From: Acidobacteriota bacterium
GTDB taxonomy: Bacteria; Acidobacteriota; UBA6911; RPQK01; CBDEGM01
Length of the DNA: 64,000 bases
Direction: 5' to 3'
Assembly: GCA_965237715.1 (NCBI GenBank)
Contig: CBDEGM010000002.1
Coordinates: 565,836-629,835 of the forward strand
Below the pieces are notes generated by a model that searched no databases, was not told where the DNA came from, and saw only the letters and a program-made list of their open reading frames with translations. The stretch's first letter is position 1; each line of letters starts with the position of its first letter. Both the position numbers and the translations under genes were made by a program. Shown here piece by piece: positions 1,998 to 58,729 of the stretch.

Positions 1998-3104
1998 ATG
2001 CGTTTTGTGATAAAGCAGAGCGATTTCCTAAAAGAGCTGCAATATACACAGGGAGTCATTGAGCGTAAGAACACGGTTCCTATTCTCTCGCATGTTTTGA
2101 TAGAAGCATCGGGGAAAAACCTACTTATCGCAGCAACTGATTTAGATGTGAGCATCCAATGCGCCAGCCCCGCAGACATACAAACCAGCGGCGCGGCGGC
2201 AGTATCGGCCCGAAAGCTTTTCGAGATTGTTAGATTGCTACCAAACGAGGATATCTCCATCAAAGCATTGGATCGCGGCTGGATCCAAATCATCTGTGGA
2301 AATTCTAGGTTTAAGGTGGCGGCGCTGGAGAAAGAGAGCTTCCCCAAGATACCAGCTCTGGATGGGACGACGATTTCTCTACCCGCTCCGACTCTCCGGG
2401 GTATGATCGGGCGCTGCATCTTCGCCATTGCCGAGGAAGAATCGCGCTATATGCTCAATGGGGCGTTGATGCTTCTAAAGTCCGGTGTTCTGACGTTAGT
2501 GGCTACTGATGGGCATCGTCTGGCGCTGATTAGCCGTGAGGAAAAAGGAATTGATCTGGAGGAAGAGAGGAGAGTCCTTGTTCCAAAAAAGACGCTTGTA
2601 GAGCTAGGTAAGCTTGTTTCTAGTGAGGAGGCCAATGTAGAATTCGCTGGCGATGAGAACCATCTCTTTTTTAAGGTGGGACACCGGGTTTTGGTTTCAC
2701 GCACCCTCGCCGGCCAATTCCCGAACTATGAGCTGGTGATCCCTCGAGAGAACGATAAGAAGATTGTGATGAATGCGGCGGCGCTTACAGTGGGGTTGAG
2801 GCGTGCGGCGATTTTGGCCGATGAGCAATCTCGCGCAGTACATCTATCTTTTAAAGAGGACCAGTTGCACATTTCGGCAACCAGCGCCGATATAGGTGAG
2901 GCCAGAGAGTCGGTGGCGGTGGAGTATCAGGGGGAACCACTTGAAATAGGGTTCAACGCCCAGTATCTACTGGATTTTCTCGCCAACCTCGAAAGTGAAG
3001 AGGTTGTTCTTGAAGCACGCGACTCGGAAACACAAGGGCTACTAAAGCCGAAGCCAGAACCGGACTACGCGTACAACTATGTAGTCATGCCCATGAAGTT
3101 GTAG
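1998..3104 (+). CDS. dnaN: DNA polymerase III beta sliding clamp
   Basis: ATDL, VATDGHRL, GQFPNY, IGFNAQYLLD, terminal VVMPMKL; follows dnaA. Confidence 0.99.
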   Translation: MRFVIKQSDFLKELQYTQGVIERKNTVPILSHVLIEASGKNLLIAATDLDVSIQCASPADIQTSGAAAVSARKLFEIVRLLPNEDISIKALDRGWIQIICGNSRFKVAALEKESFPKIPALDGTTISLPAPTLRGMIGRCIFAIAEEESRYMLNGALMLLKSGVLTLVATDGHRLALISREEKGIDLEEERRVLVPKKTLVELGKLVSSEEANVEFAGDENHLFFKVGHRVLVSRTLAGQFPNYELVIPRENDKKIVMNAAALTVGLRRAAILADEQSRAVHLSFKEDQLHISATSADIGEARESVAVEYQGEPLEIGFNAQYLLDFLANLESEEVVLEARDSETQGLLKPKPEPDYAYNYVVMPMKL

Positions 3105-3238
3105 AAGCGGCACCTAAACCTAAGCCTTACCCCACAATACAGTGTATATATAATTACAATGCTACTATATATTCCACTCACCGGTTTTAAAACCGGAGGG
3201 TTAGTGATATATAATACAGAGGTTTTATCTGCGCTTGA

Positions 3239-5850
<2,612 letters not shown>

Positions 5851-42220: not shown

Positions 42221-42310
42221 GGAGGAGTGGCCGAGTGGCTGAAGGCGGCGGTCTTGAAAACCGCTGTACCGGCAACGGTACCGTGGGTTCGAATCCTACC
42301 TCCTCCGCCA
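42221..42310 (+). tRNA. tRNA-Ser(UGA)
   Basis: GGAGGAG/CCTCC acceptor stem, anticodon loop CTTGAAA, long variable arm, GTTCGAATC, encoded CCA. Confidence 0.97.
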
Positions 42311-42570
42311 CCCACTTATCTCGTTGATATTACTGCGTTATTCTCAATTCTCTAACCAGATTTGTCTTCAATTTTCAGGCGTTTACGGGCACTTTGGCAA
42401 TGGACCTCCATTGAAAGAGACGCGTCGTTGCGGTGTGGCGCGCCGTTTCTGCGCCATCGTCTCCCGAGCCCTTTTCAGTGGTCCGTCTTTTCGACGTCCA
42501 AAACGGTTGACGCAGCTCTCTACGACCTGCATCCAGCGACAGAACCGGCCGGCTTACGATGGATCAGAGG

Positions 42571-44322
42571 TCAAGCGTGCTTGAACCCAAGCCGCTTTCG
42601 CTGGGCTTCCCACCTGAACGGCAGGCGGGTGTTCTTCATGAGCGTGTTCGCGGTCAGCCCAGGCGGTTGCCGACCGTCGATGATTGCCGTGACGATGTCC
42701 GGGGCAAGGTAGGCAAGCCGCAGCAACCGGGTGACATAGGAGGGTGAGACGCCTTCGGCCTCGGCGATCCGCTGCAGGGCGAGATCGGGGTCTTGCTCCA
42801 ATCGATCCTGGATGGCGAAGGCGCGCAGCAGCAGCCGGATCAGGCCCGGGGCGCACTTGGCATTGTTGCGGGCGCCGGGGACGACTAGTTTCATGCCCGT
42901 GCCAGCGCGCTCAAGGGCGCTTGGAATATCCAGGATGATCGGATGTTTGGCTGGCTGAGCGTCCTGCCTCGATCTTTTTATTGAGACGGCGTCCGGTCCT
43001 GCCAGGAGGGTGGCCAGGGCCCGCTCGCCGTCGATCTCGATCACGACGCGGGCGGACTCGACGATCACCCGCCGGAGAAGCGCATTGAGATAGGCCTTGG
43101 CCTGGTGCGGTTTCAGCTCAGGCCACCGGTCCGCGAGCGATTGCGCCTGGGTGATCAAGCTGGCATGAGCCGATGCCTCTCGAGGGTCTCCATCGATGAC
43201 AGCGCTGATCGCGGCCGCATCAGCGAGCCAGTCCCTGAGATGGACGGTAACGAGGCCTTCGAGATCCGCCGCCGGGAGGCGCCACCCCTTGCGGCCGGCT
43301 CGCTTGCCCTCGAGGATGAGATGGCGGGAGACGTAGTAGCGGTAGCGCCGTCCCTTCTTGACGGCATGGCTGGGTGAGAGGCCCTCGCCCTGCTCGTCAA
43401 CGGCAAGCCCCGTCAGCAGGCTCGGTTGCCGGGTCCCTTCCCGGCGCTCGCCGTTCGTGTTGGCGGCCAGGGTGGCTTGAACCTCATCCCACAGCGCTTC
43501 ATCGACAATGGCCTCATGCTGGCCGGGATAGGCCTTGTCCTTGTGGACCATCTCGCCCCGGTAGAGGCGATTGTGGAGCAGGTGATAAAGCGCCCCGCGG
43601 TTGATGGGTTTGCCGCCGGCAATACTGCCGTCGCGCCTCACTCGCCGCTTGCTGGCGACGCCTTCGGCGGCGAGCCGGCCGCGCAGTTCACGCACGGATT
43701 CGATCTCCCGGTACTGGCGGAAGATAGACCGGACCGTTTCGGCCCCGGCCTCGTTGACGATGAGCTCTTTGTCCTTCACATCGTAGCCCAAGGGCGGGTT
43801 GCCGCCCATCCACATCCCCTTCCTCTTCGAGGCGGCGATCTTGTCGCGGATGCGTTCGCCCGTGACCTCGCGCTCGAACTGGGCGAAGGAGAGCAGGACG
43901 TTCAAGGTCAGACGCCCCATCGAGGTGGTGGTGTTGAACTGCTGGGTGACGGAGACGAAGGAGACCGCTTTTCGATCAAAAATCTCCACAAGCCGGGCAA
44001 AATCCGACAGCGTCCGGGTCAGCCGGTCGACCTTGTAGACGACGATCGTGTCGATCCGCCCGGCCTCGACATCGGCGAGCAGGCGTTGCAACGCCGGCCG
44101 CTCCAGGGTGGCGCCGGAGACGCCGCCATCGTCGTAAAAAGTGGGCAGCACGATCCAGCCCTCGTGCTTCTGGCTCGCGATATAGGCCTCGCAGGCCTCC
44201 CGCTGCGCCTGCAGCGAGTTGAAGTCCTGCTCGAGGCCTTCTTCGGAGGATTTGCGGGTGTAGATGGCGCAGCGCACCGTGGCCAGACTCCTCGCCCGTG
44301 GTGATTTCCGATGCTCAGTCAT
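42571..44322 (-). CDS. Large serine recombinase
   Basis: CAIYTRKSS catalytic Ser, ERPALQRLL, VYKVDRLTR, recombinase and zinc-ribbon-like regions, C-terminal HTH. Confidence 0.93.
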   Translation of the reverse strand: MTEHRKSPRARSLATVRCAIYTRKSSEEGLEQDFNSLQAQREACEAYIASQKHEGWIVLPTFYDDGGVSGATLERPALQRLLADVEAGRIDTIVVYKVDRLTRTLSDFARLVEIFDRKAVSFVSVTQQFNTTTSMGRLTLNVLLSFAQFEREVTGERIRDKIAASKRKGMWMGGNPPLGYDVKDKELIVNEAGAETVRSIFRQYREIESVRELRGRLAAEGVASKRRVRRDGSIAGGKPINRGALYHLLHNRLYRGEMVHKDKAYPGQHEAIVDEALWDEVQATLAANTNGERREGTRQPSLLTGLAVDEQGEGLSPSHAVKKGRRYRYYVSRHLILEGKRAGRKGWRLPAADLEGLVTVHLRDWLADAAAISAVIDGDPREASAHASLITQAQSLADRWPELKPHQAKAYLNALLRRVIVESARVVIEIDGERALATLLAGPDAVSIKRSRQDAQPAKHPIILDIPSALERAGTGMKLVVPGARNNAKCAPGLIRLLLRAFAIQDRLEQDPDLALQRIAEAEGVSPSYVTRLLRLAYLAPDIVTAIIDGRQPPGLTANTLMKNTRLPFRWEAQRKRLGFKHA

Positions 44323-44806
44323 GCTCCGCCGCCGATGCGCTCTCGCCTGAAGGCCGCAGGCCGAAGAAGCGGGGACCGGACCAGTGCGCGCCCGTGATGC
44401 GTTGGGCGATAGCGGTCAAGGAACCATAGGCCTCCCCGTCGTAATCGAAGCCGCTTTCGGTCGCGGTGACGACATGGGTGCGGCCTCGCCATTCGCGCAC
44501 CAGCCGTGTGCCGGGGCACACCTTGGTGCCGTTGCCGGGGGCGACCCGGCCGGTCTCGGCGAAGGCCTGGGCCAGGGCCCGAAGCCGCCGCCGCGCCGCC
44601 TTGGAGAGCCCTCCGTGGACCTGTTCCTGGAGCTTATAGGCGATGCCGCGCATCAGCAGGTCACGGCTGAGCCGCCGGGGCGGGGGCGCCCGGTAATGGC
44701 GCCGCCATGCATCGCGCAGCGATGGCAGGTCCATCTCCTGGATCTCGGTCATCCGGGTCTCGATCGCCGGCACCTCGTGGCCTCCTCCGGGCAGGCTCGT
44801 CATCAA
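44315..44806 (-). CDS. DUF2924-family protein
   Basis: AYKLQEQVHGGL, PGTRLVREWRG, SLTAIAQRITGAHWSGPRFFGL. Confidence 0.85.
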   Translation of the reverse strand: MMTSLPGGGHEVPAIETRMTEIQEMDLPSLRDAWRRHYRAPPPRRLSRDLLMRGIAYKLQEQVHGGLSKAARRRLRALAQAFAETGRVAPGNGTKVCPGTRLVREWRGRTHVVTATESGFDYDGEAYGSLTAIAQRITGAHWSGPRFFGLRPSGESASAAEHD

Positions 44807-44995
44807 TGATTGCCGCCCGGGTCACCTCCATTGACGCTCCGTTGCCCGGTGGAAGTCCAGTCCGAAAGTGAAGATCGATCGTGCTGGGGGAGGATGGACG
44901 ACCGGACCAACACGTCTGAGGCGAACTCCCTCCCCCGGACCGCCGCCTCAACACGCTCATCGTCGTCAGAAACAGCGGGTTTCAGAACGTTGGAG

Positions 44996-46429
44996 TCAAC
45001 CCTCCATGGGTACCAGGATGGGAGCCACGGTGGAGATCCGGCGGTGCCTGCGTTGCCGGCCCCGCTGCCAACCGAGAAACTGCGTGACGCTGTCGACCTG
45101 ATCGTCGTGCCGGCTGTTGGGAAAGGCGAGCAGCTCGTTGAGAAACTCGCCCAGCCAGGGCGCGTGCCTGGGAAGGATGACTCGTCCCGACTCGAAATCC
45201 GTCAATTGAGCCTCGGTGCGCGACAGCTTGTCGCCCTCCGGCTGAATGCCGATGGGAGCCGGCACACACGCGTCGCCGTTGTGGCGCAGCTCCTGAACCA
45301 AGTGCAGCCCCGGCCCCGCCTTTTCGATCAGGATCGTGTTTACGCGTTGAGCCAGGGCCCGCTGGACGATGGCGCGCTTGACGCCCGGATAACCCAGCTG
45401 GCTGCGCCACACCTCGACCAGGTAGCAGGTTTGCCGGTGCACCGCCCAGGTCGTGCACACAGAGTAATCGCTGCTCTTGTTGACCGTCGTGGCCACGTCC
45501 CAGCTTTGCACGATCTGCCAGCCGGTGTCCCGCTCCGGTAGCTGGTCGTAGTACTTCAGCCATTCTCTTTTGATCAGATTGCCCTCATGGGGCACGGGTC
45601 TTTGCTGGTATTGCGCGGAAAAGGTGAGACTACCGACTTCCTCCTTGATGCGCATCAGCGTCTGAAGCGATTCCCGCCCGGGATGGAGCACATCGCCGCG
45701 CTTGCGATCGCGGGTATGTTCCGGCCCCAGGGCGATCGATTGGTCCTCCTCGGCGATGGCCGGAAGATTCAAATGATGCCGATCGCCGCTTTGAAGCAAA
45801 TGGCCGGCGAGATCGTCCTCGTGCAGCCGCTGCACGAGGACGATCATCACATCGCGCGCCTTGTCGTTGAGGCGGGAGACCAGGGCCGTCGTATACCATT
45901 CGTTGACATCGTCGCGGACGGTCTTGGAGCTGGCGTCCCCGGCCTTGAGCGGATCGTCGACAATAATCATGTCCGCGCCCCGTCCGGTCAGGGTGCCGCC
46001 GATGGAGGTCGCCAGGCGGCCCCCGCCCGCGGTGGTCACGCACTCGGTCCCTGCGTCTTTGCTAAGCCGCGTGCCCGGAAAAAGGGCGCGGTACCAGCCG
46101 CTGTTGACGACCTGCCGGAATTGCCGGGCCAGCGCGGCCGCCAGGGCGTCGGAATAGCTCACGCAGATGAAGCGCAGCTTGGGGTTGCGGCCCAAGGCCC
46201 AGGCCACGAAAGCGACGGATGCGCAGATCGATTTCAGGGAGCGGGGCGGTTGCGTGATGATCAGGCGCCGGCACTGGCGATCCGAGCAACGGCCCAATTG
46301 ATAGGCGATGGCTTCAATGTGCCAGTTGTGCCGGTATCTGTCCTCCGGCGAGACCGTCTGGAACGCTTTCTGGATGAACGCCGCCAGATCCGACCGCATC
46401 GCGGCCGCCAGGACGCTCGCGTCAGGCAT
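44996..46429 (-). CDS. Phage terminase large subunit-like protein
   Basis: IITQPPRSLKS Walker A variant, IIVDDP Walker B, nuclease QSWDVA..SDYS and HDDQVDS. Confidence 0.88.
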   Translation of the reverse strand: MPDASVLAAAMRSDLAAFIQKAFQTVSPEDRYRHNWHIEAIAYQLGRCSDRQCRRLIITQPPRSLKSICASVAFVAWALGRNPKLRFICVSYSDALAAALARQFRQVVNSGWYRALFPGTRLSKDAGTECVTTAGGGRLATSIGGTLTGRGADMIIVDDPLKAGDASSKTVRDDVNEWYTTALVSRLNDKARDVMIVLVQRLHEDDLAGHLLQSGDRHHLNLPAIAEEDQSIALGPEHTRDRKRGDVLHPGRESLQTLMRIKEEVGSLTFSAQYQQRPVPHEGNLIKREWLKYYDQLPERDTGWQIVQSWDVATTVNKSSDYSVCTTWAVHRQTCYLVEVWRSQLGYPGVKRAIVQRALAQRVNTILIEKAGPGLHLVQELRHNGDACVPAPIGIQPEGDKLSRTEAQLTDFESGRVILPRHAPWLGEFLNELLAFPNSRHDDQVDSVTQFLGWQRGRQRRHRRISTVAPILVPMEG

Positions 46430-46835
46430 CGCCGGGCTGCTCCGGTTCGTTCGCTTCAGCATTTGTCCCCTGACGCAAAACCCGCTCTCGGTAGTTTTCG
46501 AGAATCTCTTGATCCGGCGCGCCCAATACGCCGGCGGCGGCCGTGGCCAGCTCTTCCGCGTTGTAGGTTTGCGCGAGCGTCACCACGAGATCCAGCGATC
46601 GGGCATCCCCCTTGAGCGCCTTCTCACGCAAGCGCAGGAGCACCCCTTCTTGGGTCGACACGGTCTGCGGCTTGCCATCCTTGACAAGCCGAATGGGGGT
46701 CTCAAGCGTCTTTTTCACGTCGCTCTTGAAGTTGCGCGCCTTGGCGGGACGGCCCTTGGGATTGCCCGATTGGCCGGGCTTGAACCGCGTTGTCTTGGGC
46801 GGTCTGCGGTAGCCGACTTCGTACTCTCCAGCCAT
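46422..46835 (-). CDS. DUF5681-family protein (candidate small terminase)
   Basis: YEVGYRRPP..TRFKPGQSGNPKGRP; overlaps the terL start. Confidence 0.82.
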   Translation of the reverse strand: MAGEYEVGYRRPPKTTRFKPGQSGNPKGRPAKARNFKSDVKKTLETPIRLVKDGKPQTVSTQEGVLLRLREKALKGDARSLDLVVTLAQTYNAEELATAAAGVLGAPDQEILENYRERVLRQGTNAEANEPEQPGDA

Positions 46836-46837
46836 CG

Positions 46838-48232
46838 TCATGAATCCGTTGCATTTTGTCGGGAGGTGTCGGCCGGCCGGCGGCTTGGCCGAATCTCGGC
46901 GAAGGCCGCCCCGCTGGCAGCGTGAACCACAGAGTGACCGGTCAGCCGCTCGTAGCGCTCGATGGCGACGTCGACGTGCTTTGGGTCCAGCTCGATGCCG
47001 AACCCGCGCCGCCCGGTGCGCTCGGCCGCGATCAACGTCGAGCCCGAGCCGGCGAAGCCATCCAGTACGATTCCGCCGCGTCTCGAGCAATCCCTGATCG
47101 CGTCGGCGATCATCGCCACCGGCTTGACCGTCGGATGCAGAGCGAGATCGTCCAGACGGTCCGGCCCCCACGCATTGACGCCCGCATACTCCCAAACGTT
47201 GGTCCGGTTCCGCCCGTGGCGGCCCAGCTCGACGTTGTTGATGTGGGGCGCCGCGCCATGCTTGAAAACGAAGACCAGTTCGTGCCGCGAACGGTAGAGC
47301 GAACCCATACCGCCGTTGGTCTTGCTCCAAACGCACAGATTCTTGAGCTCCGAATAGACCGATTGGCCGGCCGCGAGCACCTCGCCGAGATGACGCCAGT
47401 CCATGCACACATAGTGGATCGAGCCATCGCGGCTATGCTCGGCAAGGTTTCGAAACGTTTTCCCCAGAAAATCCGTATAGGCCCGCTCGGACATCTCGCC
47501 CGAGGCCATGACGAACTCTCCATGGCGCGCCTGGCCTCTGCCGCAGACGTTGCCGCGGATCGGCACGTTGTAGGGCGGGTCGGTGAAAACCAGCCCGGCC
47601 TTCTCCCCGCCCAGCAGCCGCTCGAACACAGAAGGATCCCTGGCGTCGGCGCACAGCAACCGGTGGGCCCCCAGGCGCCACAGGTCGCCGATGCGCGAAA
47701 CCGGCGGCTCGTCGTCGATAGCGGGCAGCTTGTCGGCCGGATCCGTCTCTTCGCCCGACCGCGCCTCATCGAGTAGGAGATCGATCTCGGCCGTCTCAAA
47801 ACCGGTGAGCGTGACGTCGAAACCCAGCGTCAGGTCCGTCAGGAACCGAAGCTCCTCGGTTAACAGCTCGCTGTCCCACCCGGCGTTCTCCGCCAGCTTG
47901 TTGTCCGCGATGACGTAAGCGCGCTTTTGCGCCTCGGTCAGGTCGCCAATGCGGATCGTGGGAACCTGACGGATGCCCAGCAACTTCGCCGCCTCCAGCC
48001 GCCCATGCCCGGCCATCACGCTTCCCTTCTCGTCGACCAAGATCGGGTTGGTGAAACCGAACGCGCGGATGCTGTCGGCGATCTGCCGGATCTGCCGTTT
48101 ACTATGGGTCCGCGGATTGCGCGCGTCAGGCTGGAGGGCCGATATCGCCTGAAAGGTGACCGTTGGCCGGCTGGGGGCGCAATCGGACGCCGGGCGCGTC
48201 GGGGCTCCCGCTTTCGCTGTTTCCTTCATCAA
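46838..48232 (-). CDS. ParB/Srx N-terminal domain fused to an N4/N6 DNA methyltransferase
   Basis: GFTNPILVD..AGHGRLEAA..IADNKL; FTDPPY; HPTVKP; LDGFAGSGST. Confidence 0.9.
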   Translation of the reverse strand: MMKETAKAGAPTRPASDCAPSRPTVTFQAISALQPDARNPRTHSKRQIRQIADSIRAFGFTNPILVDEKGSVMAGHGRLEAAKLLGIRQVPTIRIGDLTEAQKRAYVIADNKLAENAGWDSELLTEELRFLTDLTLGFDVTLTGFETAEIDLLLDEARSGEETDPADKLPAIDDEPPVSRIGDLWRLGAHRLLCADARDPSVFERLLGGEKAGLVFTDPPYNVPIRGNVCGRGQARHGEFVMASGEMSERAYTDFLGKTFRNLAEHSRDGSIHYVCMDWRHLGEVLAAGQSVYSELKNLCVWSKTNGGMGSLYRSRHELVFVFKHGAAPHINNVELGRHGRNRTNVWEYAGVNAWGPDRLDDLALHPTVKPVAMIADAIRDCSRRGGIVLDGFAGSGSTLIAAERTGRRGFGIELDPKHVDVAIERYERLTGHSVVHAASGAAFAEIRPSRRPADTSRQNATDS

Positions 48233-48380
48233 AAACCTCTATCGAGATCTATGAACACCCCGCCAGATCTTCCTACCTGCATTCATTGCTCTTCCTCCTA
48301 ATGGGTTCACGTCGTCGTTGCATCCTTAGCGGCCGCTAGAGTCCCGATGGACCGAGGCGGCCGCCCTTCTGATCGCATCC

Positions 48381-48421
48381 TCCATTATAACACGCCATAC
48401 CGCTGATCCGCTGTCTAGCGT
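48381..48421 (-). promoter_or_regulatory. Candidate promoter and operator for the MTase-terminase operon
   Basis: Extended -10 TGtTATAAT (hexamer 48384-48389, minus strand); GATCCGCTGtcTAGCGT at 48405-48421 matches 49509-49525. Confidence 0.5.
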
Positions 48422-48438
48422 ATTATCATGCCAAAAAA

Positions 48439-49140
48439 CTAAACGAACAAACCAGGAACCGCCGTCTTGACCAATATTCGCCGCTGTTCCAGTCGCACTC
48501 GTGCAGCCTCGAGGGACACGTGAAACGCCGCCGCGATGCGGTCGATCATGGCCTGCCCGGCCTCCGATCCGACGGCTATGTTGCTGTACATGAGGCCTTC
48601 GGTGGCACGGAACGCCCGGACAACCCGCACATGTTCGGTTCTTGGCATCAACAACGCCCCACAGGCGTACCCCGCCTGCCATTCCATCCAGTCGCTGCTG
48701 GGCGCGACGATCGCCTCTCTGTGACAGGTGTTGCGTGTTTTCCGCGGCTCGCCCGCGAACAACCTTCCGAGTCCGTCCTCCAGAGCGAACAGGAAGCCGT
48801 GCACAAGCACGTGGCCGCATTCGTGCGTGAGTGTCGCGCGAAGGCGATTTTCGTAATTGGGTGCCTGTAGACGACTGGCGATCTTGACGTGCGGCTTCCT
48901 TCGCGGGAAGAAATCCGTCAACCCGTCGACACCGTCCTCGAGCACGCAGCCATTGTCCAGATCGTCGACCTCCCGCTCAAGGAGGACCGTGAGGTCGTCA
49001 GTGCTGGCCGGGAAGGCCACCCTGCCGTGACGGTCCCACAGAAAGCGAGTCATCGTATCCTCACAGAGCTGTTCGAGCTCGTCGGGATGGTAGTGTGGTC
49101 GCTCTCGAAACCGCCCGGAGTTGTCACGCACCCATTTCAC
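48439..49140 (-). CDS. ImmA/IrrE-family metallopeptidase (anti-repressor)
   Basis: RLRATLTHECGH (HExxH), EWQA..ACGALLMP, FHVSLEAARVRL. Confidence 0.9.
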   Translation of the reverse strand: MKWVRDNSGRFRERPHYHPDELEQLCEDTMTRFLWDRHGRVAFPASTDDLTVLLEREVDDLDNGCVLEDGVDGLTDFFPRRKPHVKIASRLQAPNYENRLRATLTHECGHVLVHGFLFALEDGLGRLFAGEPRKTRNTCHREAIVAPSSDWMEWQAGYACGALLMPRTEHVRVVRAFRATEGLMYSNIAVGSEAGQAMIDRIAAAFHVSLEAARVRLEQRRILVKTAVPGLFV

Positions 49141-49164
49141 GGCGATACTCCTTTGATCTCGGAT

Positions 49165-49497
49165 TCATGTCTTGTCCTTGAGCACCTTCCGAAAAGCAGT
49201 GAAGGCCTTCTCGACTCGCTGCGGGTCAGACCCCGGGAGCTTCTCCCGCAGGTCCGTTGGCCAGAGACCCGCCGCGGCGATCAGATGCTCCTTCGAGAGC
49301 CCCAAATGTCCTGCGAGCTGCTCGATGATGTACTCCGACGGCGGATTTCGCCGGTCGTGTTCGATGTCGTTGAGATACTGCGGCGAGATCGCACCCCCGC
49401 CTCCTTTACGTGTTCTCGCCGCCAATTCCTTCTGGCTCATGCCGAGCGCCTTGCGCGCGTCCGCAATGATCCGGCCGAATGTGCTCAAGTGTCCCAT
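49165..49497 (-). CDS. XRE-family HTH repressor (ImmR-like)
   Basis: ARKALGMSQKELA...ISPQYLNDIEHDRRNP; directly upstream of the ImmA-like gene. Confidence 0.9.
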   Translation of the reverse strand: MGHLSTFGRIIADARKALGMSQKELAARTRKGGGGAISPQYLNDIEHDRRNPPSEYIIEQLAGHLGLSKEHLIAAAGLWPTDLREKLPGSDPQRVEKAFTAFRKVLKDKT

Positions 49498-49707
49498 GCC
49501 CCGCTGGCGATCCGCTGATTAGCGTGTAACGCTTGCGGCGCCCTGTCAAGTCCCCCTCGCACAACTCAAGCTGGGGTCTGGACCATTCAGCGAAGCGATG
49601 AGGACCTTTTTTGACATGAACGACGAGTACGTGTATCCGGAAACTGTACCGGCCCCAAAGTTCGAATACACACTTTTCCACAACCGCTACGGATTGGACT
49701 TCGAAGA

Positions 49708-50130
49708 CGCGTTGTTACATGGATCGGGGCGGAGATGAAATTCCCCCTTTCCCAAAGCCGTAGCGTCAGGCGATGCGTTTGAACACGTGCCGTCCGAGTG
49801 CGGTCATTGTGTTCAGGACTTTCTGGCCGACCTTGATCTCCGTGATTTGCCTGGAGAAGCTGCGGGATTTGAGCTTGGGGCCGTTGACGCTCTTCCAACA
49901 GCCGATGCTGCGTTTCTATCCGGCTGCGCTGGTTGTACCCTGTGGCCACTTGCCAGGCCATGCGGCCGTTGCTGCGGATCTGGGCAATGTGGCGATCCCG
50001 AACGGTCGGATCACTGCGCGCGGTATAACCACATCCAGGGTCTCCCCATACCCATGCCTTAGCATATCCCGTGTGGACGCTCCATCATAGGCGCCGTCAG
50101 CCAGAAAGCCCGTGACCGGGGCATCCAATC
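49708..50130 (-). pseudogene. Degenerate IS5-family (IS903-like) transposase 3' fragment with one terminal repeat
   Basis: ADGAYD, VIP, TGYNQRSRIET; end CGCGTTGTTACAT resembles the TIR at 57655. Confidence 0.7.
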
Positions 50131-50344
50131 TGTCAGGAAGAAAACTCTATAACCCTGGCCGGGATGTGTCTATCAATCCAAATGAGAACTCTATTCTGAC
50201 GCCTTAGCGCCCCGTCGCTGGGATGTTGGCCGTGTTTACGTGGTTCGCGCGGACATCCTGATGGCTCTTAGCGCACGAGTTTTTCCGTTTTGTGAGGTGG
50301 CCCCAAGTACGAGAAGCAGCGAGGACACCTGTGCCCTCTTCCGC

Positions 50345-52306
50345 CTATTCCCGATCCATCCTCTCTTTCACCGGCACTACCGGCAGTGTTGTAAAGAGCT
50401 GGTTGCTGGCATCGAGTTCCACGGCCACTCCGGTGAACATCCCCTCCCCTGGCGCGGTGCAGCGCACCGACCCCGCGAAATCGGACGTATCGGTGCGGGG
50501 GAACATCTGCTCGATGTACTGGGCGTCCTGCCCGTTGACCTCCAGCGGGATGGCCACCTCTTCGAGCACAATGCCCCCGCTCATCAACCGGTAACTCACC
50601 CCCAGGGCTTCCTCTCCCAGGTTGTGGATCGCCGCCGCGGTGCTGATTCCCCCCACCTGGCGGCGGGTCGGGAAGATGGCGTCCCTTACGGGTTGGCTGG
50701 CTCCCACCCCGGCCACCCCGATGCCGGGCAGGCCGAAGCGCAGGACCCCGCCGATGGGACCGTCCGAGACCACCTTCACTGATCCGCTCACCACCTCCCC
50801 ACGGCCGTGGGTCGAAATCGTGAGTTCGCCTAACGGTTCCATGGCCGTCCGCACGCTCAGGGCACCGTCTTCCAGGATCTCCAGATCCGGTGTGACATCC
50901 ACCACCGACCGGACGGCAATGGGTTCGCCTTCCTGGTCGTAGAAGTGGAGGGCGGGCCGGATCGGATGGGGGGCTACATTCACGAGCACGATCCCGGAGG
51001 TGATGCCGGTCCCATTGGCGAAATGCGCAAAGTCCAGGGTGCGCTCGCGAAACGGGACCCCAACCGACCATACCTTGGCGCCTCCGGCTCCGAAGCTGGC
51101 GATCCGGGGATCGTCAGGCGAGAACACGATGCCGCTGCCGCGCCCGCCGCCGCCTGGGAGAATCGTCAGCAAATCGCCGGTCAGGGCATCCCACATCCAG
51201 GTTGTCCCGTCTGGACTCACACCTGCCAGGCGCAGCCCATCCTGGGAGAATGCAGCATAGGAGAAAGGTGCTCTATGTCCTTCCAGCGTGAGCAGTTCCC
51301 CACCGGTACGGGCGTCCCAGACGCGCAACACGCGGTTGCGGCCGTCGTACGTCACCACTCGTCTGCCGTCCGGGGAGAATCTTGCGCCGCCCCGTCTACC
51401 GGCTGTCTCCAGGTCGGCAAGCTCCGCGCCTGTTTTTGCGTTCCACACCTAGACCCTGCGTTCGGGAAACTGTCCGTCAATGGTGAGCAGCAACGAGCCA
51501 TCGGGGGATTCTTCCACGTAGACGACGCCCTTTTCAAAAGTCAGGGAGTGCAGGATTTCGCCCGACACCCAATCTAAAACTGTTGCCCCGTTGTTCGAAG
51601 CAATCAGCAAGCGTACTCCGTCGTAGGACCAGGACACATGCCTGTACTCCGTGTACTCCGCTCTGTCCGGATCAAGTTCCAACGGCTCCGAGGCGATATT
51701 GTCAAGGTTCCAAACCGTGATGAAAGAGCTCACCGCGGCGAGGCGCCGGCCATCCGGAGACCAGGCCGGCGGAACGGACTTGGCTGTCGAGCGTAATCCC
51801 GGTTCCGCCCTGTGTTGCATGGTCCCAGAGTTCGAGTACATTGAAGGACTGCGAATCCGAGATCGTAAGAAAGCGGTCTCCACGGGGGGGGAATACGACA
51901 CATGTTCGACGGGGCGTCTGGGCGGCCTCAAGCGAGAAACCGGTTCAACGCGTTCCGGCAACTCGTAGAGTTGAACGCCCGTCTCTGCGTCCCAGACCCT
52001 GACAGAGCCGTCTCTACCCGAAGTGACGATGTGGGTCCCATCGGGCGAGTAATCCAGCGAGAGCACTGTTCCGCGTTGGTGGCCCTCGAAGCGGGCCACT
52101 TCCCGGCCTGTGGCTCTCTCCCAGACGATTGCCCTGCCGTCAGCACCGGCAGTCGCGAATTGGCTCCCGTCCCAGGACCAATCCACGGTCAAGACGTAGT
52201 TGAGAAAGATGTCGATATCCAGCAACTGCATTCCCGTTTCGACGTCCCAGACCTTCGCAGTTCGGTCCAGTCCCACGCTGGCGAGGTAGCGCCCTTCCGG
52301 CGAAAA
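50345..52306 (-). pseudogene. WD40-repeat protein with the conserved ~230-aa C-terminal domain; in-frame TAG at 51449-51451; 5' end truncated by a MITE
   Basis: Repeated SPDG...VWDAETG blades; ORFs 51449-52276 and 50345-51448 share a frame; C-terminus LDFAHFANG...FTTLPVVPV. Confidence 0.8.
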
Positions 52307-52436
52307 GGTACTGTCAAGTTAAGTGGAATTCTCGGGTTTTGGAGGCGAAATCGGTCGTCGGTCGAACGTAGAATCAACAACTTAGGGACTTGCCAAGGCG
52401 CTGATTAGGCACCAAATCGGTTAACTTGACAGTACC
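52307..52436. mobile_element. 130-bp MITE with 16-bp perfect TIRs
   Basis: GGTACTGTCAAGTTAA ... TTAACTTGACAGTACC; no target duplication. Confidence 0.88.
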
Positions 52437-53025
52437 GCTCGTCGGGCTTTCGCTCGTTCCACCAAAATGCGGCACGGTCGGCCACTAGCGAACTTACGCG
52501 GGCTTCGCCGTGCTTATCCTCATAAATCATTGAGACGGTGCAACCGAACAGCCGACGCATTTGGTTGCGGAGCCGGGTGCGAACACCCGTCGCCCCGCCG
52601 CTGTCGCTGCTAAGGATACCGAGCGTCCGCATGAACTCAGAGAGCGAACGGCCCAGGACGAGCTCGCGGCTTCCCGTCCGTACCACTTCGGTACAGAGCC
52701 AGGCCAGGAGCAGCCGGGGGAAGTTGCCGTAGGGGAGTTTGTAGCCTGGACCTGACTGCATATAGAGCGTGAAGGGGCCGTTGACGCGCTTGTATTCTTT
52801 CCGGTTGCCAGGGTTGGTGCGCGGGAGGTTGCACAACACTATCATCCGCGCCATGAAGCCGAGATTGGGGTCCGCTTCGCTGGCCCCGACAAGCTGGTGC
52901 ACCTGATCGGCAAGGGTGAAGTGGTGCAACGCCTGGGGCGAGGCTTCGCGGAGCGCCTGGACTTGGCCGGGTAGATCGCCGAAGGCTTCCCCGATCGGAA
53001 CCAAGCCGTCTCGTTTGCTCTGCAT
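52437..53025 (-). pseudogene. Plasmid-type replication protein RepA (RepA_C-like), C-terminally truncated
   Basis: LGFMAR..LP.TNP, LPYGNFPRLLLAWL.TE, LGRSLSEFMR.LG, RLRNQMRRLF; cut at the MITE. Confidence 0.8.
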
Positions 53026-53067: not shown

Positions 53068-56000
53068 TTATTCCTGGGACGGCATCTCTGGAACCGGCAC
53101 CACCGGCAAGGTCGTGAAGATGCGGTTGGCGGCATCCAGCTCCACGGCCACTCCGGTGAACATCCCTTCCCCTGGCGCGGTGCAGCGCACCGACCCCGCA
53201 AAATCGGACGTATCGGCCCCGGTGAACACCTCGTCGATGAACCAGGACGACTGCCCATTGGCCGCAAGGGGAATGCTCTCGGCTTCGAGCACGGTACCCC
53301 CTTGCATCAATTCGCACGTCACCTCCACCGCTTCTTCGCCCGGGTTGTGGATCGCCACCCCGGTGTTGATTCCCCCCGCCTGGCGGCGCACCGGGAAGAG
53401 GGCGTCGTGGACGGGTGAGCTGGCTCCCACCCCGGCCACCCCGACGCCGGGCAGGTCAAAGCGCAGGACCCCGCCGATGGGCTCGTCCGCGATCACCCGC
53501 ACCGATCCGCTCACCAGCGCCCCGCGCCCGTGGGTCGAAATCGTGAGTTCGCCCAGGGGCTCCATTTCCGTCTGGACCGTCAGCCCGCCGTCCTCGGTGA
53601 TCTCCAGATCCCCGGTGATATCCACCACCGATTCGGCGGACACGAGCGCGCCCTCGGTGTCGTAGAAATAAAGAGCGGGGCGCGCCGGAAGGATGTCCGA
53701 ATGAAAGGGGGTGGGCGCGGGACGGCTCCGCTCGGTGGATAGGTTCAGGAACACCAGATCGGAGGTAAGGCCCGCCCCATTGGCGAAATGCGCGAAGTTC
53801 AGCTCCGCCGCCCGGCCTCCGGCGCGCCGCGTCGGAAACACCGGCAGGGTGGTGAAGATGCGGCGGGCGGCATCCAGCTCCAGGGCCACGGCTGTGAACA
53901 TCCCCGGACCCGCTGCATCGCAATGCACCGACCCCGCGAAATCGGACGTATCGGCGGCGGGGAACGCCGCGTCGATGAACCAGGATGACTGCCCGTTGGC
54001 CGCTAGAGGGAGACTCACGGCGTCGTGCAGCACGCCCTCTCGCATCAATTCGCAGCGCACGATTTCCGGGCTCGATTCCAGGTTGTGGATCGCCACCCCG
54101 GTGTTGATTTCCCCCGCCTGGCGGCGCACCGGGAAGAGGGCGTCCCTCACGGGTGAGCTGGCTCCCACCCCGGCCACCCCGATATCCGGGAGATCAAAGC
54201 GCAGGACTCCGCCGATGGCCCCGAACGCGACCACCCGCGCCGATCCACTCACCAGCTCCCCTTGGCCGTGGGTCGAGATCGTGAGTTCTCCCAGCGGCTC
54301 CATCGCCGTCTGGATGCTCAGGCTGCCGTCCTCTTGGATCTCCAGATCGCCCGTGATGTCCACCACCGATTCGGCGGCAATGAGATTCCCCTCTTTATCG
54401 TAGAAGTAGAGGGCGGGACGGATCGGCTGGGTCCCCACATTTAGGAACACCAGATCGGAGGTAAGGCCATCGCCGTTGGCGAAATGCGCAAAGTCCAGGG
54501 TAAACACTTCCGGCTTAGCCTCGCCCCGGTTGGAAGAGGCACTCCCGCCCGCCGCGTTGACCGCCCGCACCTCGAAGACGTAGACCGTGCCATTGACGAG
54601 TCCGGTAACCGTATGGGTGGTTTGGGTGGAACCGGTGGAGATCCAGGGATCACTCCTGTTGATCCGGTATTCGTAATCCGTGATCTCCGCCCCGCCGTCG
54701 CTCGCCGGAGCGTCCCAACTCAGCACGACCTCACCGTTCCCGCCCACCACCGTCAGGTTCGTCGGCGCGCCGGGCACGGACGTTGTCGGTACGCCACCAC
54801 CGCCTGGAGGTCCGGGTGGTGGAGGTGGCGGAGAGGGCGGGTCAGGCGGTGGTGGATCAGGAGGAGGAGGCGGGGGCGGGGTGACCGTCTCAGTGGCACC
54901 CCCGAAGACCCAGGGGCGGGCCTGCTTGATCGCCAGGATGTCGGCACTCGTGATCTTGAACTCGATCTCCATGGCGAACGGCTCATCAGGGGCGGGGTTG
55001 TACAGCCCTTCGAAGTGGGCATGGATCACCTCAAGATGCGCTCTCAACTGGCGCAGTTGGTCGTCGCTCATGAGGAGCTGCCCCGGCTCCACCAGGTTGG
55101 AGGTCGCCAGGATGGTGTAATTACCTACCGATCTCAACAAGAGTTCCTCCGGCACCGAGTACTCTTCGGGATTGGTGACCAGATCCTCGCCGAGTTGCGT
55201 GTTGACGTAGTAGATCCCGTCACTGCCGTAGATGGGGTCAAAGCTGACGCCCACGCCGTTGGCCAACTCGTCCGAGTAGTTGGGATGCACCAGCACCCCC
55301 ATCGCCGCCGCCAGGTGATCGATCCGATAGAAGTCCCGTTCGGTGAAAGCCCGGAAGGTCCACAGGCTGGCCCACACCCCTTTGATGGATTTGTCGATGC
55401 CATCCTCCTCGGTCTCGTCGGGATGCTGGGTCTTGGAGTCGTACAGGCCCGCCCCGTTGAACCCCGGCAGGTCTTCGTTGTTGGTGCTGGACCGGTAGCG
55501 CAGCGAGGTCCCCTCGGGAAACATCGCGTGCATGGCGGTCAGCGCCTCGATGATCCAGGCGGGCGTCTCCGCGTCCTTGATGGCGTCGCGGAGATCATCG
55601 AGCCTGTCATCCTGGGTTTCGAAGTCCGTCTGGAAATCTTCGTCGGCCAGCATCTCCTTGACGTCGTCATAGAATCCGTGGGCCTTCATGAACTCGTCGT
55701 AGAAATAGAACGGGATCGCAAATCCGTCGGGGACGGTCCCCTCCGGAAAACCCAGCGTCCCCAGCACGGCCAGGTTGGCCGCCTTGACCCCGAACGTCTT
55801 CCAGTCCTCGAAACCGATCTGACTGAGGGGGGTGATCGACGTGACCGAGAGGTTCCGTTGCGGTGTCTGTTCTTCGGTGGGCCGGGAGGACTCGTAGTGC
55901 GCGTCCACTTCCTCGGGTGTGGCCATGCGCAGCGACCAGCCCGCAGCGGTCACCTCGTAGCGGACGTACCCGCCGATTAGAGGCGCGATATCCGGGTCGT

Positions 56001-57597
56001 CGAGGGCATCGCGGATGAAGGCGTTGGGGATGCCGTCCTGGACGGCGCGCAGGTTGACGTGCGACAGCGGGGTTTGGGGCACGGCGGAGATGATGCCGGC
56101 GACGCGGGGCAATTCGTTGGGTAGCGCCTCGTAGAGCACGATGTCGCGCGGGTGGGGCCGGTCGTCCGGCTCCAGGGCCTGCAGCCGGCCGTACCCTTCC
56201 CCCGGGTTCAACGCCAGGAAGTTGAATTCGCCGTAAATGTCGACATTGAACACGAGGTCGATCCGGGACTCCCTGAGCAACGGCAACTCGGGCTGTAAAT
56301 CAGGAAGCTGATAGTTTGTGATATGGAAAGTCAGGTTGTCATCGAGAAGCGGCATGCTGGCAGCAAGCAGCGTATAGACGCGGTCCACCAAGACGAAGGA
56401 GGGATTTGCCGTCACCCCAAAATGGAAGATCTGTTCGCTGCCGACCGAGCGATAACTGATCAGGCCGAGAAGAGCCTGATTTCGTTCAATACCCCTGTCA
56501 TCCAGGAAGGTCTGATGGTACGGGTGCTGTTTGGCGTTGATGAAGTAGAGACTCGGCCGGTCGGTGTCCCAGCCCAGCAGAATGAATTTGAAGGTTCTGT
56601 ATATGGCCAGTGTGTCGTATGTCTGCTTGTCGGGAACAGCTAGGGCACCGTCGCTGAGATCGACCGGGGCGGCGGGATTCACCGGGTTCATGCTCACTGG
56701 GTCCCCCAGTTCGGTGATGTCGTCGATGCAGTCGCCGTCGCCGTCGGCCGGGTCGGTGATCTGGTACTTCTCCACCCGATAACGCTCTTTCGGCAGCGCC
56801 TCCACGTTCTCGGATAGCGTGGTCGTACCCGCTTCCCCCAGGGTCACCGCGACCGGCAGTTTCACCTCCGTGCGATACAAATCGTGCTGCACATAGAGCA
56901 CGAAGTACTCCTCAGTCGTCGACTGGACCACTATGGGAACGGCCGTCACCGCCGCCACCACCACCGTCGGGTTATAGCCGCCTCCTTCACACGGCTCTTC
57001 AGGGTCGCCGCCCTGGGCGAGGGCGTTTCCGCTCGACAAAAAGACAAGGGAAGCGAGGGCGAAGACGGCGCGCTTGCGCCCGTGGTGGGGGTGGAGCGGG
57101 TTCTGGAAAGCCGCGAAGATGGACCGCAGGACCGCTGGCAACACGGCGAGAAGGACAAGGAGGGTCCGTCCGCACGATAGACATACGGCGGAAGCGGACG
57201 GCGCGCTCGTACGGGCGGGTAGGCTTAGGTCAGAGGTGTAGCGTGGCTCTTGGCTCTTGGCTCTTGGCTCTTGGCTCTTGGCTCTTGGCTCTTGGCTCTT
57301 GGCTCTTGGCTCTTGGCTCTTGGCTCTTGGCTCTTGGCTCTTGGCTCTTGGCTCTTGGCTCTTGGCTCTTGGCTCTTGGCTCTTGGCTCTTGGCTCTTGG
57401 CTCTTGGCTCTTGGCTCTTGGCTCTTGGCTCTTGGCTCTTGGCTCTTGGCTCTTGGCTCTTGGCTCTTGGCTCTTGGCTCTTGGCTCTTGGCTCTTGGCT
57501 CTTGGCTCTTGGCTCTTGGCTCTTGGCTCTTGGCTCTTGGCTCTTGGCTCTTGGCTCTTGGCTCTTGGCTCTTGGCTCTTATGATTTTGTGCGCCAC
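53068..57597 (-). CDS. Large secreted multidomain protein: repeat leader, signal-like segment, phospho-His-like and PEP/pyruvate-binding (PPDK-N) domains, Pro linker, FN3, two copies of the ~230-aa C-terminal domain
   Basis: TPLSHVNLRA; FGVKAANL, VPDGFAIP, RSSTNNEDLPGFNGAGLYDS, IKQARP; LSWDAPASDGG...YVFEVRAVN; true start uncertain. Confidence 0.82.
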   Translation of the reverse strand: MAHKIIRAKSQEPRAKSQEPRAKSQEPRAKSQEPRAKSQEPRAKSQEPRAKSQEPRAKSQEPRAKSQEPRAKSQEPRAKSQEPRAKSQEPRAKSQEPRAKSQEPRAKSQEPRAKSQEPRYTSDLSLPARTSAPSASAVCLSCGRTLLVLLAVLPAVLRSIFAAFQNPLHPHHGRKRAVFALASLVFLSSGNALAQGGDPEEPCEGGGYNPTVVVAAVTAVPIVVQSTTEEYFVLYVQHDLYRTEVKLPVAVTLGEAGTTTLSENVEALPKERYRVEKYQITDPADGDGDCIDDITELGDPVSMNPVNPAAPVDLSDGALAVPDKQTYDTLAIYRTFKFILLGWDTDRPSLYFINAKQHPYHQTFLDDRGIERNQALLGLISYRSVGSEQIFHFGVTANPSFVLVDRVYTLLAASMPLLDDNLTFHITNYQLPDLQPELPLLRESRIDLVFNVDIYGEFNFLALNPGEGYGRLQALEPDDRPHPRDIVLYEALPNELPRVAGIISAVPQTPLSHVNLRAVQDGIPNAFIRDALDDPDIAPLIGGYVRYEVTAAGWSLRMATPEEVDAHYESSRPTEEQTPQRNLSVTSITPLSQIGFEDWKTFGVKAANLAVLGTLGFPEGTVPDGFAIPFYFYDEFMKAHGFYDDVKEMLADEDFQTDFETQDDRLDDLRDAIKDAETPAWIIEALTAMHAMFPEGTSLRYRSSTNNEDLPGFNGAGLYDSKTQHPDETEEDGIDKSIKGVWASLWTFRAFTERDFYRIDHLAAAMGVLVHPNYSDELANGVGVSFDPIYGSDGIYYVNTQLGEDLVTNPEEYSVPEELLLRSVGNYTILATSNLVEPGQLLMSDDQLRQLRAHLEVIHAHFEGLYNPAPDEPFAMEIEFKITSADILAIKQARPWVFGGATETVTPPPPPPPDPPPPDPPSPPPPPPGPPGGGGVPTTSVPGAPTNLTVVGGNGEVVLSWDAPASDGGAEITDYEYRINRSDPWISTGSTQTTHTVTGLVNGTVYVFEVRAVNAAGGSASSNRGEAKPEVFTLDFAHFANGDGLTSDLVFLNVGTQPIRPALYFYDKEGNLIAAESVVDITGDLEIQEDGSLSIQTAMEPLGELTISTHGQGELVSGSARVVAFGAIGGVLRFDLPDIGVAGVGASSPVRDALFPVRRQAGEINTGVAIHNLESSPEIVRCELMREGVLHDAVSLPLAANGQSSWFIDAAFPAADTSDFAGSVHCDAAGPGMFTAVALELDAARRIFTTLPVFPTRRAGGRAAELNFAHFANGAGLTSDLVFLNLSTERSRPAPTPFHSDILPARPALYFYDTEGALVSAESVVDITGDLEITEDGGLTVQTEMEPLGELTISTHGRGALVSGSVRVIADEPIGGVLRFDLPGVGVAGVGASSPVHDALFPVRRQAGGINTGVAIHNPGEEAVEVTCELMQGGTVLEAESIPLAANGQSSWFIDEVFTGADTSDFAGSVRCTAPGEGMFTGVAVELDAANRIFTTLPVVPVPEMPSQE
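57245..57580. repeat. Perfect tandem heptamer (GGCTCTT)x48, 336 bp
   Basis: Counted directly; reads SQEPRAK on the minus strand. Confidence 0.98.
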
Positions 57598-57654: not shown

Positions 57655-58729
57655 CGCGTTGTTGCACAAATCGCTTCGGCACGTCCGCTTGTCTCCGATG
57701 GGCCAGGGTGCCAGCATGAGGAATGACGCCGAATCAATACACGTTCCGGTACCGAGTACGCAACTGGTCAGACTACAATCGGGCGCTGATCGCCAGGGGG
57801 CGTCTGACCTTTTGGTTCGATGAGGACGCCGTTGCCGCCTGGCGGAACGCCGACCCGCCCAAGGGCCCCGGCGCTCCGAAGGTTTACTCCGACACGGCCA
57901 TTCAGTGTGCGCTGATATTGAAGTCGGTGTTTCATCTTAGCCTTCGGTCGACGCAGGGCTTCGTTTCTTCGCTCCTGGAGTTGCTCAGACTCGATCTGCC
58001 AGTTCCAGACTACAGCACTCTCAGTAGACGACAGAGTTCCTTGGCGACGTTCTTGACTGTTAGCCCAAGCAGTCGGCCTCGGCACGTGGTTGTGGATGCG
58101 ACGGGCCTGAGAGTGTACGGCTCGGGTGAAGGGCACGTCCGAAAGCATCGACATGGTCGGCGCAGAGCCTGGCGCAAGCTGCACCCGGGTGTCGATGAGA
58201 GGACGAAAGAGATTGTGGCGGTGGAGGTTACACCGAGCCGGGTTCCACGACTGTCGTCTGTTGCCGGCCCTGCTGGATCAGATTCCGGGTCGCATCGTTC
58301 AAGTCTCGGGCGACGGGGCCTATGACACGAGGGCCTGTTATCAATCGATACTCGAGCGGGAGGCTGTCGCCACCATCCCTCCGCGACGCAGTGCGCGGCT
58401 GAGTGAAAGTGTGGACCCGCCTGCCTGGCGGGCAATGCGGGATGCCCATCTACGAGAAATAAGGAGAGACTCGGTCGATATGAATGGCGCATCTCCAGTG
58501 GTTGCACCAGGCAAAGCCTTGCAGAGAATGCGATGTCGAGGTTCAAGACGTTGTTTGGGCCTAAGCTGTCGGCCCGACGATTCGACAATCAACGGGTCGA
58601 GGCCATCATCAAATGTGAGGTGCTGAATCGTATGTCAAGCCGGGGCATGCCTGAGTCAGTGCGAATTCGATAGCATTCAAACAGGACTGGGATCGGTCCG
58701 TGACCCGACCGGATTTGTGCAACAACGCG
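57655..58729 (+). mobile_element. IS5-family (IS903-like) element; transposase 57723-58673 with two frameshifts
   Basis: TIR CGCGTTGTTGCACAAATC at both ends; NWSDYNRAL..RG, PDYSTLSRR, VDATGL, GDGAYD. Confidence 0.92.

Follow-up and report, generated by a model that had tools for sequence, protein, structure and literature searches.

How should a protein be understood that carries, behind what looks like a signal peptide, the ATP-grasp and histidine-swivel domains of the dikinases, which to our knowledge are textbook intracellular enzymes of a type otherwise known only inside cells? The question is raised by a gene on the minus strand of the window, i.e. the whole 64,000-nucleotide stretch of Acidobacteriota DNA analysed here (contig CBDEGM010000002.1, positions 565,836 to 629,835). 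The reading that we favour, with moderate confidence, is that this gene encodes a Sec-exported, stalk-mounted histidine-relay dikinase. The kind of enzyme is already known; what is new is its location and the family to which it belongs, which is undescribed and horizontally traded. No paper on an exported dikinase family was found in the literature searched, which did not extend to preprint supplements, and in a preprint on giant proteins PPDK_N is only named among the most frequent domains, in a supplementary-figure legend. A first-pass annotation of this DNA had already described an apparently exported dikinase-like enzyme. The anatomy it proposed is borne out by the present analysis, whereas it had missed the architecture of the glucan dikinases, two further C-terminal domains, the spread of the family across phyla and the mobile setting of the gene.

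The gene is real and intact-looking. Residue numbers used here are those of the long open reading frame (ORF) P0001, which covers positions 53068-57597 (1509 codons in the ORF list) and stays open up to 57597 only because it crosses a (TGGCTCT)x48 array at 57244-57580. Since no in-frame ATG, GTG or TTG was read between this array and position 57144, since the database gene call P0002 (1358 aa) begins at the same codon, GTG 57144, and since two relatives, P0025 and the one at locus L030, share a conserved leader and start at the matching point in it, the gene is taken as 53068..57144, encoding 1358 aa from the GTG at 57144 to the stop codon at 53068-53070. The first-pass annotation had set its limits at 54915..57165, a span that does contain the core elements of the protein; because the gene extends to 53068, however, a fibronectin type III (fn3) domain and the two C-terminal domains fell outside it. 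The core, termed here the module, comprises 711 residues (196-906) between the leader and a Pro/Gly-rich linker, and "module" numbers start at residue 196. All features of the protein described below lie on the minus strand.

Catalytic unit and relation to known dikinases

The most conserved of the catalytic parts of the module is its C-terminal ATP-grasp domain (module 389-707, 54892..55848), with a mean column identity of 0.80 and 101 of 302 columns invariant in an alignment of 35 modules. It was recognised by Pfam as PPDK_N (PF01326, residues 602-896, E 4.8e-24, 85.7 bits against a cut-off of 27), a family matched in all 35 modules, as well as by fold. Its predicted structure superimposes on that of rifampin phosphotransferase (RPH) in PDB entry 5hv1 with Z 27.9 and a root-mean-square deviation (rmsd) of 2.5 A over 294 residues, and on that of PEP synthase PpsA (2ols) with Z 27.8; the Foldseek E value is 1.7e-14. 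Its motifs GVKAxN (with K410), RYRSSTNNEDLP (505-516), GAGLY (520-524), ExE and QxRP are invariant in the 35 sequences, as are the individual residues H318, K410, R505/R507, E513/D514, E682/E684 and Q697/R699. We take the residues of these ATP-grasp motifs to have nucleotide- and Mg-binding roles. In PEP synthases and RPH of solved structure, the corresponding motifs align with the segments RSSxxxEDLP and WASLW. More specific models reach this domain only, and remain far below their cut-offs: two NCBIfam PEP synthase models with 69.5 bits against 598 and 65.3 against 739.75, and RIF_Ptrans_rph (NF041857) with 56.4 against 999.

Upstream of the ATP-grasp domain lies the segment TPLSHVNLRA (residues 509-518, 56073-56044), in which the first-pass annotation had seen a candidate phospho-histidine in a swivel-like context. 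This reading holds in the predicted model, where the segment belongs to a domain (module 262-371, 55900..56229) that aligns by VIA-align with residues 753-867 of RPH 5fbu (Z 10.4, rmsd 2.7 A, 97 residues). A comparison of the domain with 48,161 PDB representatives placed phospho-histidine swivel domains in all of the first seven ranks, namely those of RPH, the C-domain of Geobacillus pyruvate kinase, Enzyme I (two chains), PPDK (two chains) and EI-Ntr, with Z values of 10.5 (5hv1), 10.0 (2e28), 9.7 (2wqd), 9.6, 8.7 (2fm4), 8.6 and 8.4. The candidate catalytic residue, His513 (module H318, 56059-56061), starts a short helix (318-326), and the domain is nearly as well conserved as the ATP-grasp domain (0.76). 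By fold and by motifs, the protein thus possesses both the PPDK_N and the phospho-histidine domain that characterise the His-swivel dikinase superfamily. A pyruvate-binding barrel is missing, as the first reading had noted: PEP/pyruvate-binding Pfam families are absent from the whole protein and from all 35 family modules. The genome contains a single copy of the module, and an ordinary PPDK_N gene elsewhere (C4:2153120).

The models in question were built with AlphaFold on the alignment of the 35 modules, and reached a mean predicted local distance difference test score (pLDDT) of 85.9 and a predicted template modelling score (pTM) of 0.79 for the whole module, and of 86.2 and 0.68, respectively, for its first 385 residues. 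In the N-terminal part of the module, secondary structure assignment by DSSP delimits a beta-sandwich (module 13-89, 56746..56976, block pLDDT about 90, mean column identity 0.74) and an alpha/beta domain (module 112-260, 56233..56679), which is presumed to form the acceptor side and is the least conserved part of the module (0.565, with 6 of 149 columns invariant). The two are separated by a Ca-binding-like loop of the form DxDxDGDCxDDxxE (module 88-103, 56704..56751), defined from sequence and alignment, which includes the DGDGDCIDD motif noted at first (residues 285-293, 56745-56719); D90, D92, D94 and D98 are invariant in the 35 sequences, and mean column identity is 0.89. The N-terminal part found no counterpart of its own. 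Pfam matched no family in module residues 1-260 at E up to 10, and among the 48,161 PDB representatives the best match of the beta-sandwich reached Z 4.2 only and that of the alpha/beta domain Z 6.4 (2okf, over module 139-259), none of them convincing. In the Foldseek search made for this part, RPH alone came up at E up to 0.001, and it did so through the His domain.

The closest architectural parallel is provided by alpha-glucan,water dikinase GWD1 and phosphoglucan,water dikinase PWD of plants and algae (EC 2.7.9.4 and 2.7.9.5). Here as there, an acceptor-side part is followed by a short link, the His domain, a linker and the C-terminal ATP-binding domain, the catalytic histidine stands at the start of a short helix, and there is no PEP/pyruvate barrel (PMC13553574). 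The GWD1 study gives the order in potato StGWD1 as two CBM45 domains, an alpha-helical central domain (483-926), the His domain (931-1050, with His992) and the ATP-binding domain (1069-1387), with only four residues joining the central and His domains, and there the authors stress that this order is unlike that of PPDK and RPH (PMC13553574). The module follows the same order (112-260, 262-371, 389-707), with a similarly short link from 259 to 262. GWD1_pHisD (PF22973) is the only Pfam His-domain model that touches the family, in 2 of the 35 members (best E 0.0025) but not in this protein itself; in one neighbouring ESM Atlas cluster, 15% of the members have it. Differences from the plant enzymes are nevertheless considerable. 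Neither CBM45 nor CBM20 was matched by Pfam in module residues 1-260 (E up to 10) or in the whole protein (E up to 0.1), and the models have a beta-sandwich and an alpha/beta domain where GWD1 has its alpha-helical central domain, whose entries 9HA9 and 9QVI are not among the fold matches listed for the N-terminal part. The His domain of the module is devoid of cysteine, whereas that of GWD1 contains C1003 and C1007. An export signal, a conserved Cys pair, fn3 and surface domains, and a horizontally spread prokaryotic family further set the present protein apart from GWD1 and PWD.

The best structural match for both catalytic domains is RPH (RPH-Lm; PDB 5hv1 and 5fbs-5fbu), with the related phenolic phosphate synthetase, in which a swivelling histidine phosphorylates non-pyruvate acceptors. 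RPH is cytoplasmic, however, and its order is reversed, with the ATP-grasp domain first, then the substrate domain, and the His domain at the C-terminus. PpsA and PPDK also have homologous ATP-grasp and His-swivel domains, but these are arranged in another order and accompanied by a PEP/pyruvate TIM-barrel, which the present protein lacks, having a Pro/Gly linker and fn3 after its ATP-grasp domain. Searches of PDB sequences with the protein and with the family profile retrieved only PEP synthases and RPH, over the ATP-grasp domain, and no glucan dikinase chain. The protein thus has the layout of the GWD enzymes, and by analogy would work as they do, without belonging to their family. Its N-terminal part differs from that of GWD1 and has no convincing match among solved folds, and the acceptor is not readable from homology.

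Leader, cysteines and accessory domains

The protein begins with a signal-peptide-like leader of 44 aa (residues 152-195, 57013..57144), in which the basic stretch HHGRKR is followed by the hydrophobic stretch AVFALASLVFLSS and then by GNALA|QGG. The signal-peptide-like sequence RKRAVFALASLVFLSSGNALAQ, on which the first proposal of export relied, is indeed present in it (residues 174-195, 57078-57013). Positive charges thus precede the hydrophobic stretch, an AxA-Q site comes after it, and an uncharged hydrophobic 12-mer, the feature used as a leader heuristic, was found in this protein. Among the 74 loci of the family described below, 26 have the module within 140 codons of the ORF start, and 24 of these show a hydrophobic 12-mer just upstream, mostly then followed by AxA-Q. 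At two loci (L075 and L076), other domains come before the module, and the leader stands at the far N-terminus. Export by the twin-arginine route is not favoured, since the leader contains RKR but no clear S/T-R-R-x-F-L motif.

Two cysteines only are found in the 711-residue module, C8 (56989-56991) and C95, the latter within the Ca-binding-like loop. When cysteines were counted in 73 modules of the 74 loci, leaving out L077, which is without the motif, both were found in 70, C95 only in 2, and neither in the remaining one, the archaeal module. Both are also missing in P0242, P0251 and P0252, divergent members (47-52% identity) which have DGDG in place of DGDC. These three consist of a signal peptide, the module and a type IX secretion system (T9SS) sorting domain (P0242, TIGR04183, 33.9 bits against a cut-off of 23; P0252, PF18962, 29.3 against 27; P0251, 27.1 against 27), and were read as a Bacteroidota-type lineage of the family. 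Other envelope anchors in relatives are SLH in P0199 (55 bits against 20.8) and CWB2 in P0248 (115.8 against 24.9). The precomputed partner-domain accessions of relatives are mostly fn3, with cadherin, Calx-beta, LRR, PPC and sulfatase also present.

Downstream of the module, as first described, a Pro/Gly-rich linker recognised from sequence (from residue 907, 54778..54891) leads to fn3 (residues 944-1024, 54526..54768; PF00041, E 1e-12, 48.5 bits against 25). Pfam found PPDK_N and fn3 above cut-off in the whole protein, and nothing more. The remainder (53071..54510) was resolved by sequence comparison into two tandem domains of about 235 aa, each starting with FAHFANG and containing one Cys pair spaced 44 residues apart. 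The two copies share 75% identity, and the genome contains 29 matches to the domain, most of which sit at the C-terminal end of a protein. Among Pfam families, DUF5719 and DUF5979 alone were matched at E up to 10, both below threshold, and the nearest ESM Atlas clusters of the domain are annotated "hypothetical protein", most often from Acidobacteriota. The FAHFANG domain may serve in surface attachment or binding. Taken together, the leader, the Cys pair, the anchors and the partner domains make an extracytoplasmic location of the protein and its family likely.

Horizontal spread of the family and genomic setting

The family is very large. A word-indexed search gave 3023 matches among 8000 scored candidates, the best 120 of which are 58-100% identical to the query, and when representatives at 50% identity were searched exhaustively, 4748 proteins matched at E up to 0.001, of which 1255 did so at E up to 1e-30. 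The module may stand at any position in its relatives, which reach 3769 aa. In two of them, P0003 and P0007, a single chain of about 2000 aa contains the module twice, or once together with an incomplete copy. Contigs of one genome per species offered 540 candidate stretches, of which 518 could be confirmed; the 74 loci retained belong by record title to Chloroflexota (51), Acidimicrobiia (11, including Candidatus Poriferisodalis), Latescibacterota (4), Acidobacteriota (4, among which Candidatus Multivorans was counted on the basis of its placement by tree analysis), Thermodesulfobacteriota (2), Binatia (1) and Cenarchaeum (1).

The module family has spread horizontally. Identity between modules is 56-74% across seven phyla and two domains of life, which identifies the module as an adaptive gene that is traded between lineages. 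When 35 of the 75 available modules were placed in a quick maximum-likelihood tree, 15 changes of phylum label were required, against a minimum of 6 and a mean of 17.2 for shuffled labels, with 15 of 200 shuffles as low. Cross-phylum sister pairs have maximal support by the Shimodaira-Hasegawa-like approximate likelihood ratio test (SH-aLRT 100) in three cases (Thermodesulfobacteriota with Terriglobia, Dehalococcoidia with Aldehydirespirator, and Latescibacterota with Chloroflexi), and a fourth pair joins Dehalococcoidia with the archaeon Cenarchaeum (SH-aLRT 95). The RpoB protein of the window's genome is 73% and 71% identical to those of two Acidobacteriota genomes, while the values for three other phyla are 55-60%, yet the module of this genome shares 74% identity with a Thermodesulfobacteriota copy and 69-70% with Dehalococcoidia and Latescibacterota copies. 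Only 2 of 40 genomes of the same order have the module. The names Candidatus Poriferisodalis and Cenarchaeum point to sponges, and the family is probably tied to life in sponge tissue.

The setting of the gene fits acquisition on a mobile element. The gene lies within a stretch of approximately 42-58 kb with a G+C content of 0.60-0.65, compared to 0.56 for the genome. This GC-rich island starts at a tRNA-Ser(TGA) gene (42221-42310) and continues with a serine recombinase (42571-44322), followed in order by genes for a DUF2924 protein, a terminase large subunit, a ParB-methylase, an IrrE-type peptidase and a WD40-repeat protein (50345-52276, minus strand), the last with one in-frame TAG at 51449-51451. 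The C-terminal 230 residues of the WD40 protein are 65% identical to the C-terminal FAHFANG domain of the dikinase protein. A RepA_C protein (52405-53025) precedes the dikinase gene. The region from 42221 to 53025 has the look of an integrative or phage-like element in decay. A search of the window and of contig C3 for an att-like repeat of the tRNA-Ser 3' end returned nothing.

On the 5' side of the gene, the heptanucleotide array (57244..57580, 48.1 copies of TGGCTCT with 100% matches according to Tandem Repeats Finder, TRF) begins 100 bp upstream of the start codon. Matches to it in the genome number 45, all inside the array itself. It stands between the dikinase gene and a copy of an insertion sequence of the IS5 family (57655-58729, 1075 bp, DDE_Tnp_1_5), which follows the array after 74 bp, has a transposase divided between two frames, and is present in more than 20 genome copies at 98-99% identity. 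Slippage in the array could alter promoter spacing or reading frame, and the array could thereby be a phase-variation switch for a surface protein. The sole other short-period array detected by TRF in the genome, (GTCAATG)x26.6 at C4:1333163-1333348, is also a heptamer array; it is intergenic and adjoins a UbiD-like ORF, named by eye from its sequence, and unannotated ORFs. Promoter and terminator scans gave nothing above chance. Contigs of four metagenome runs yielded 3080-4642 short pieces per run at at least 90% identity, none across the gene, and the 22 runs listed included none of RNA.

Some neighbours of the module in other genomes were noted. A 560-aa protein with sCache_2 and sCache_3_2 domains occurs within 6 kb of the module in 7 of the 74 loci, six from Chloroflexota and one archaeal (e.g. 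L067:2158-3840, and the Cenarchaeum locus L032). A nucleobase-type Xan_ur_permease is likewise found within 6 kb of it in three loci from three phyla, and a LuxR-type protein in three.

Proposed function and competing explanations

The mechanism proposed for this protein is by analogy with glucan,water dikinase and rifampin phosphotransferase, and catalysis by the module is likewise suggested by these enzymes. The C-terminal ATP-grasp domain would bind ATP-Mg, and the swivel domain would carry His513 to the beta-phosphate, yielding AMP, orthophosphate and phospho-histidine. The swivel domain would then swing to the N-terminal part, composed of the beta-sandwich, the Ca loop and the alpha/beta domain, where the phosphate would be handed to an acceptor bound there or, in its absence, to water. 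This head would be held at the cell surface, or targeted to it, by the Pro/Gly linker together with fn3 and the pair of C-terminal domains. As proposed in the first-pass annotation, ATP may be used outside the cell, with a glycan, an antibiotic or a host molecule as possible acceptors. Our guess would be a polymer or small molecule of the matrix of an animal host, with plain removal of extracellular ATP ranked next. It is also tempting to see here the first extracellular histidine-relay dikinase, a "symbiosis tool" spread by transfer among unrelated bacteria and an archaeon of sponge tissue, with which ATP from outside the cells would be spent to phosphorylate a polymer or metabolite of the host matrix, or the extracellular-ATP alarm of the host would be silenced. 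Phosphorylation of a host polymer would then resemble that of starch, which plants phosphorylate to open it for digestion. This more specific picture is put forward tentatively, and we consider it somewhat doubtful.

Several observations weigh against an exported histidine-relay dikinase. ATP is scarce outside cells, and we know of no characterised extracellular dikinase. The leader heuristic is also passed by 156 of 377 long control ORFs of the same GC-rich genome, and a looser version by 64 of the 74 loci compared to 173 of the 377 controls. The Pfam PEP-utilizers family (PF00391) is without a match, whether in the 35 modules (E up to 10) or in the whole protein (E up to 0.1), and GWD1_pHisD matched this protein neither as a whole (E up to 0.1) nor in its module (E up to 10). 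The alignment behind the structural models is shallow, with 35 close homologues of at least 56% identity. No acceptor site could be assigned in the presumed acceptor domain, whose conservation is the lowest in the module and which matches no known fold. Clustering of 605 flank ORFs from the 74 loci gave no recurrent partner gene beside the module, which therefore seems to act without a dedicated partner. Finally, the 5' flank of the gene is rearranged here, with the repeat array and then the IS5 copy, so that expression at this locus is uncertain.

The alternatives differ in which part of the preferred reading they give up. If the acceptor is abandoned, the protein becomes an exported ATP remover passing phosphate mainly to water, i.e. 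converting ATP to AMP and two orthophosphates, with an N-terminal part that is structural or serves in targeting; it would lower ATP around the symbiont, and so blunt a host danger signal or harvest phosphate. The ATP-grasp (0.80) and His (0.76) domains are indeed far more conserved than the alpha/beta domain (0.565), neither the fold search nor the 74 loci revealed an acceptor-type fold or partner gene, and GWD1 itself can pass phosphate to water as an alternative to glucan, according to a figure 9 legend (PMC13553574). A swivel relay would be elaborate for simple hydrolysis, however, and the conservation of the beta-sandwich (0.74) and especially of the Ca loop (0.89) suggests that something is bound there, so that we regard this explanation as unlikely, if the most serious of the competitors. 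Alternatively, a surface-borne or released enzyme might phosphorylate a host molecule inside host cells or phagosomes, where ATP is plentiful. Such an effector would suit the partner domains of relatives, which are of a eukaryote-like adhesion kind (fn3, cadherin, LRR), and the lineages concerned, as Candidatus Poriferisodalis and Cenarchaeum are named like sponge symbionts. It is at odds with the T9SS, SLH and CWB2 anchors, which point to retention on the surface of the producer, and with the conserved Cys pair of disulfide type, which fits an oxidising compartment; nor was any translocation device or signal seen in the window or in the 74 loci. We therefore hold it to be quite improbable.

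Loss of catalysis, with the fold kept as a pseudo-enzyme that binds a nucleotide or polymer without phosphate transfer, might be invoked for a location without precedent, but in that case the invariance of the histidine and of every ATP-grasp motif across seven phyla would be unexpected, and we give this possibility little credence. Still less do we believe that the protein is not exported at all, its leader being a membrane anchor or the product of a wrong start and its module cytoplasmic like other dikinases. All characterised relatives are intracellular, and the leader heuristics are weak, given the many controls that pass them (156 and 173 of 377). Against this stand the charges, hydrophobic stretch and AxA-Q site in the order of a signal peptide, the pattern of the Cys pair, which points outside, the fn3 and envelope-anchor domains on the same chains, and the leader at the far N-terminus where other domains precede the module (L075 and L076).

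If the exported histidine-relay dikinase that we favour is real, then a very large family would have placed ATP-driven phosphorylation chemistry outside the cell. Knowledge of its acceptor could show symbionts altering host material, feeding on it or dealing with extracellular ATP by a novel route, and the family could yield a new enzyme for phosphorylating polymers or small molecules.

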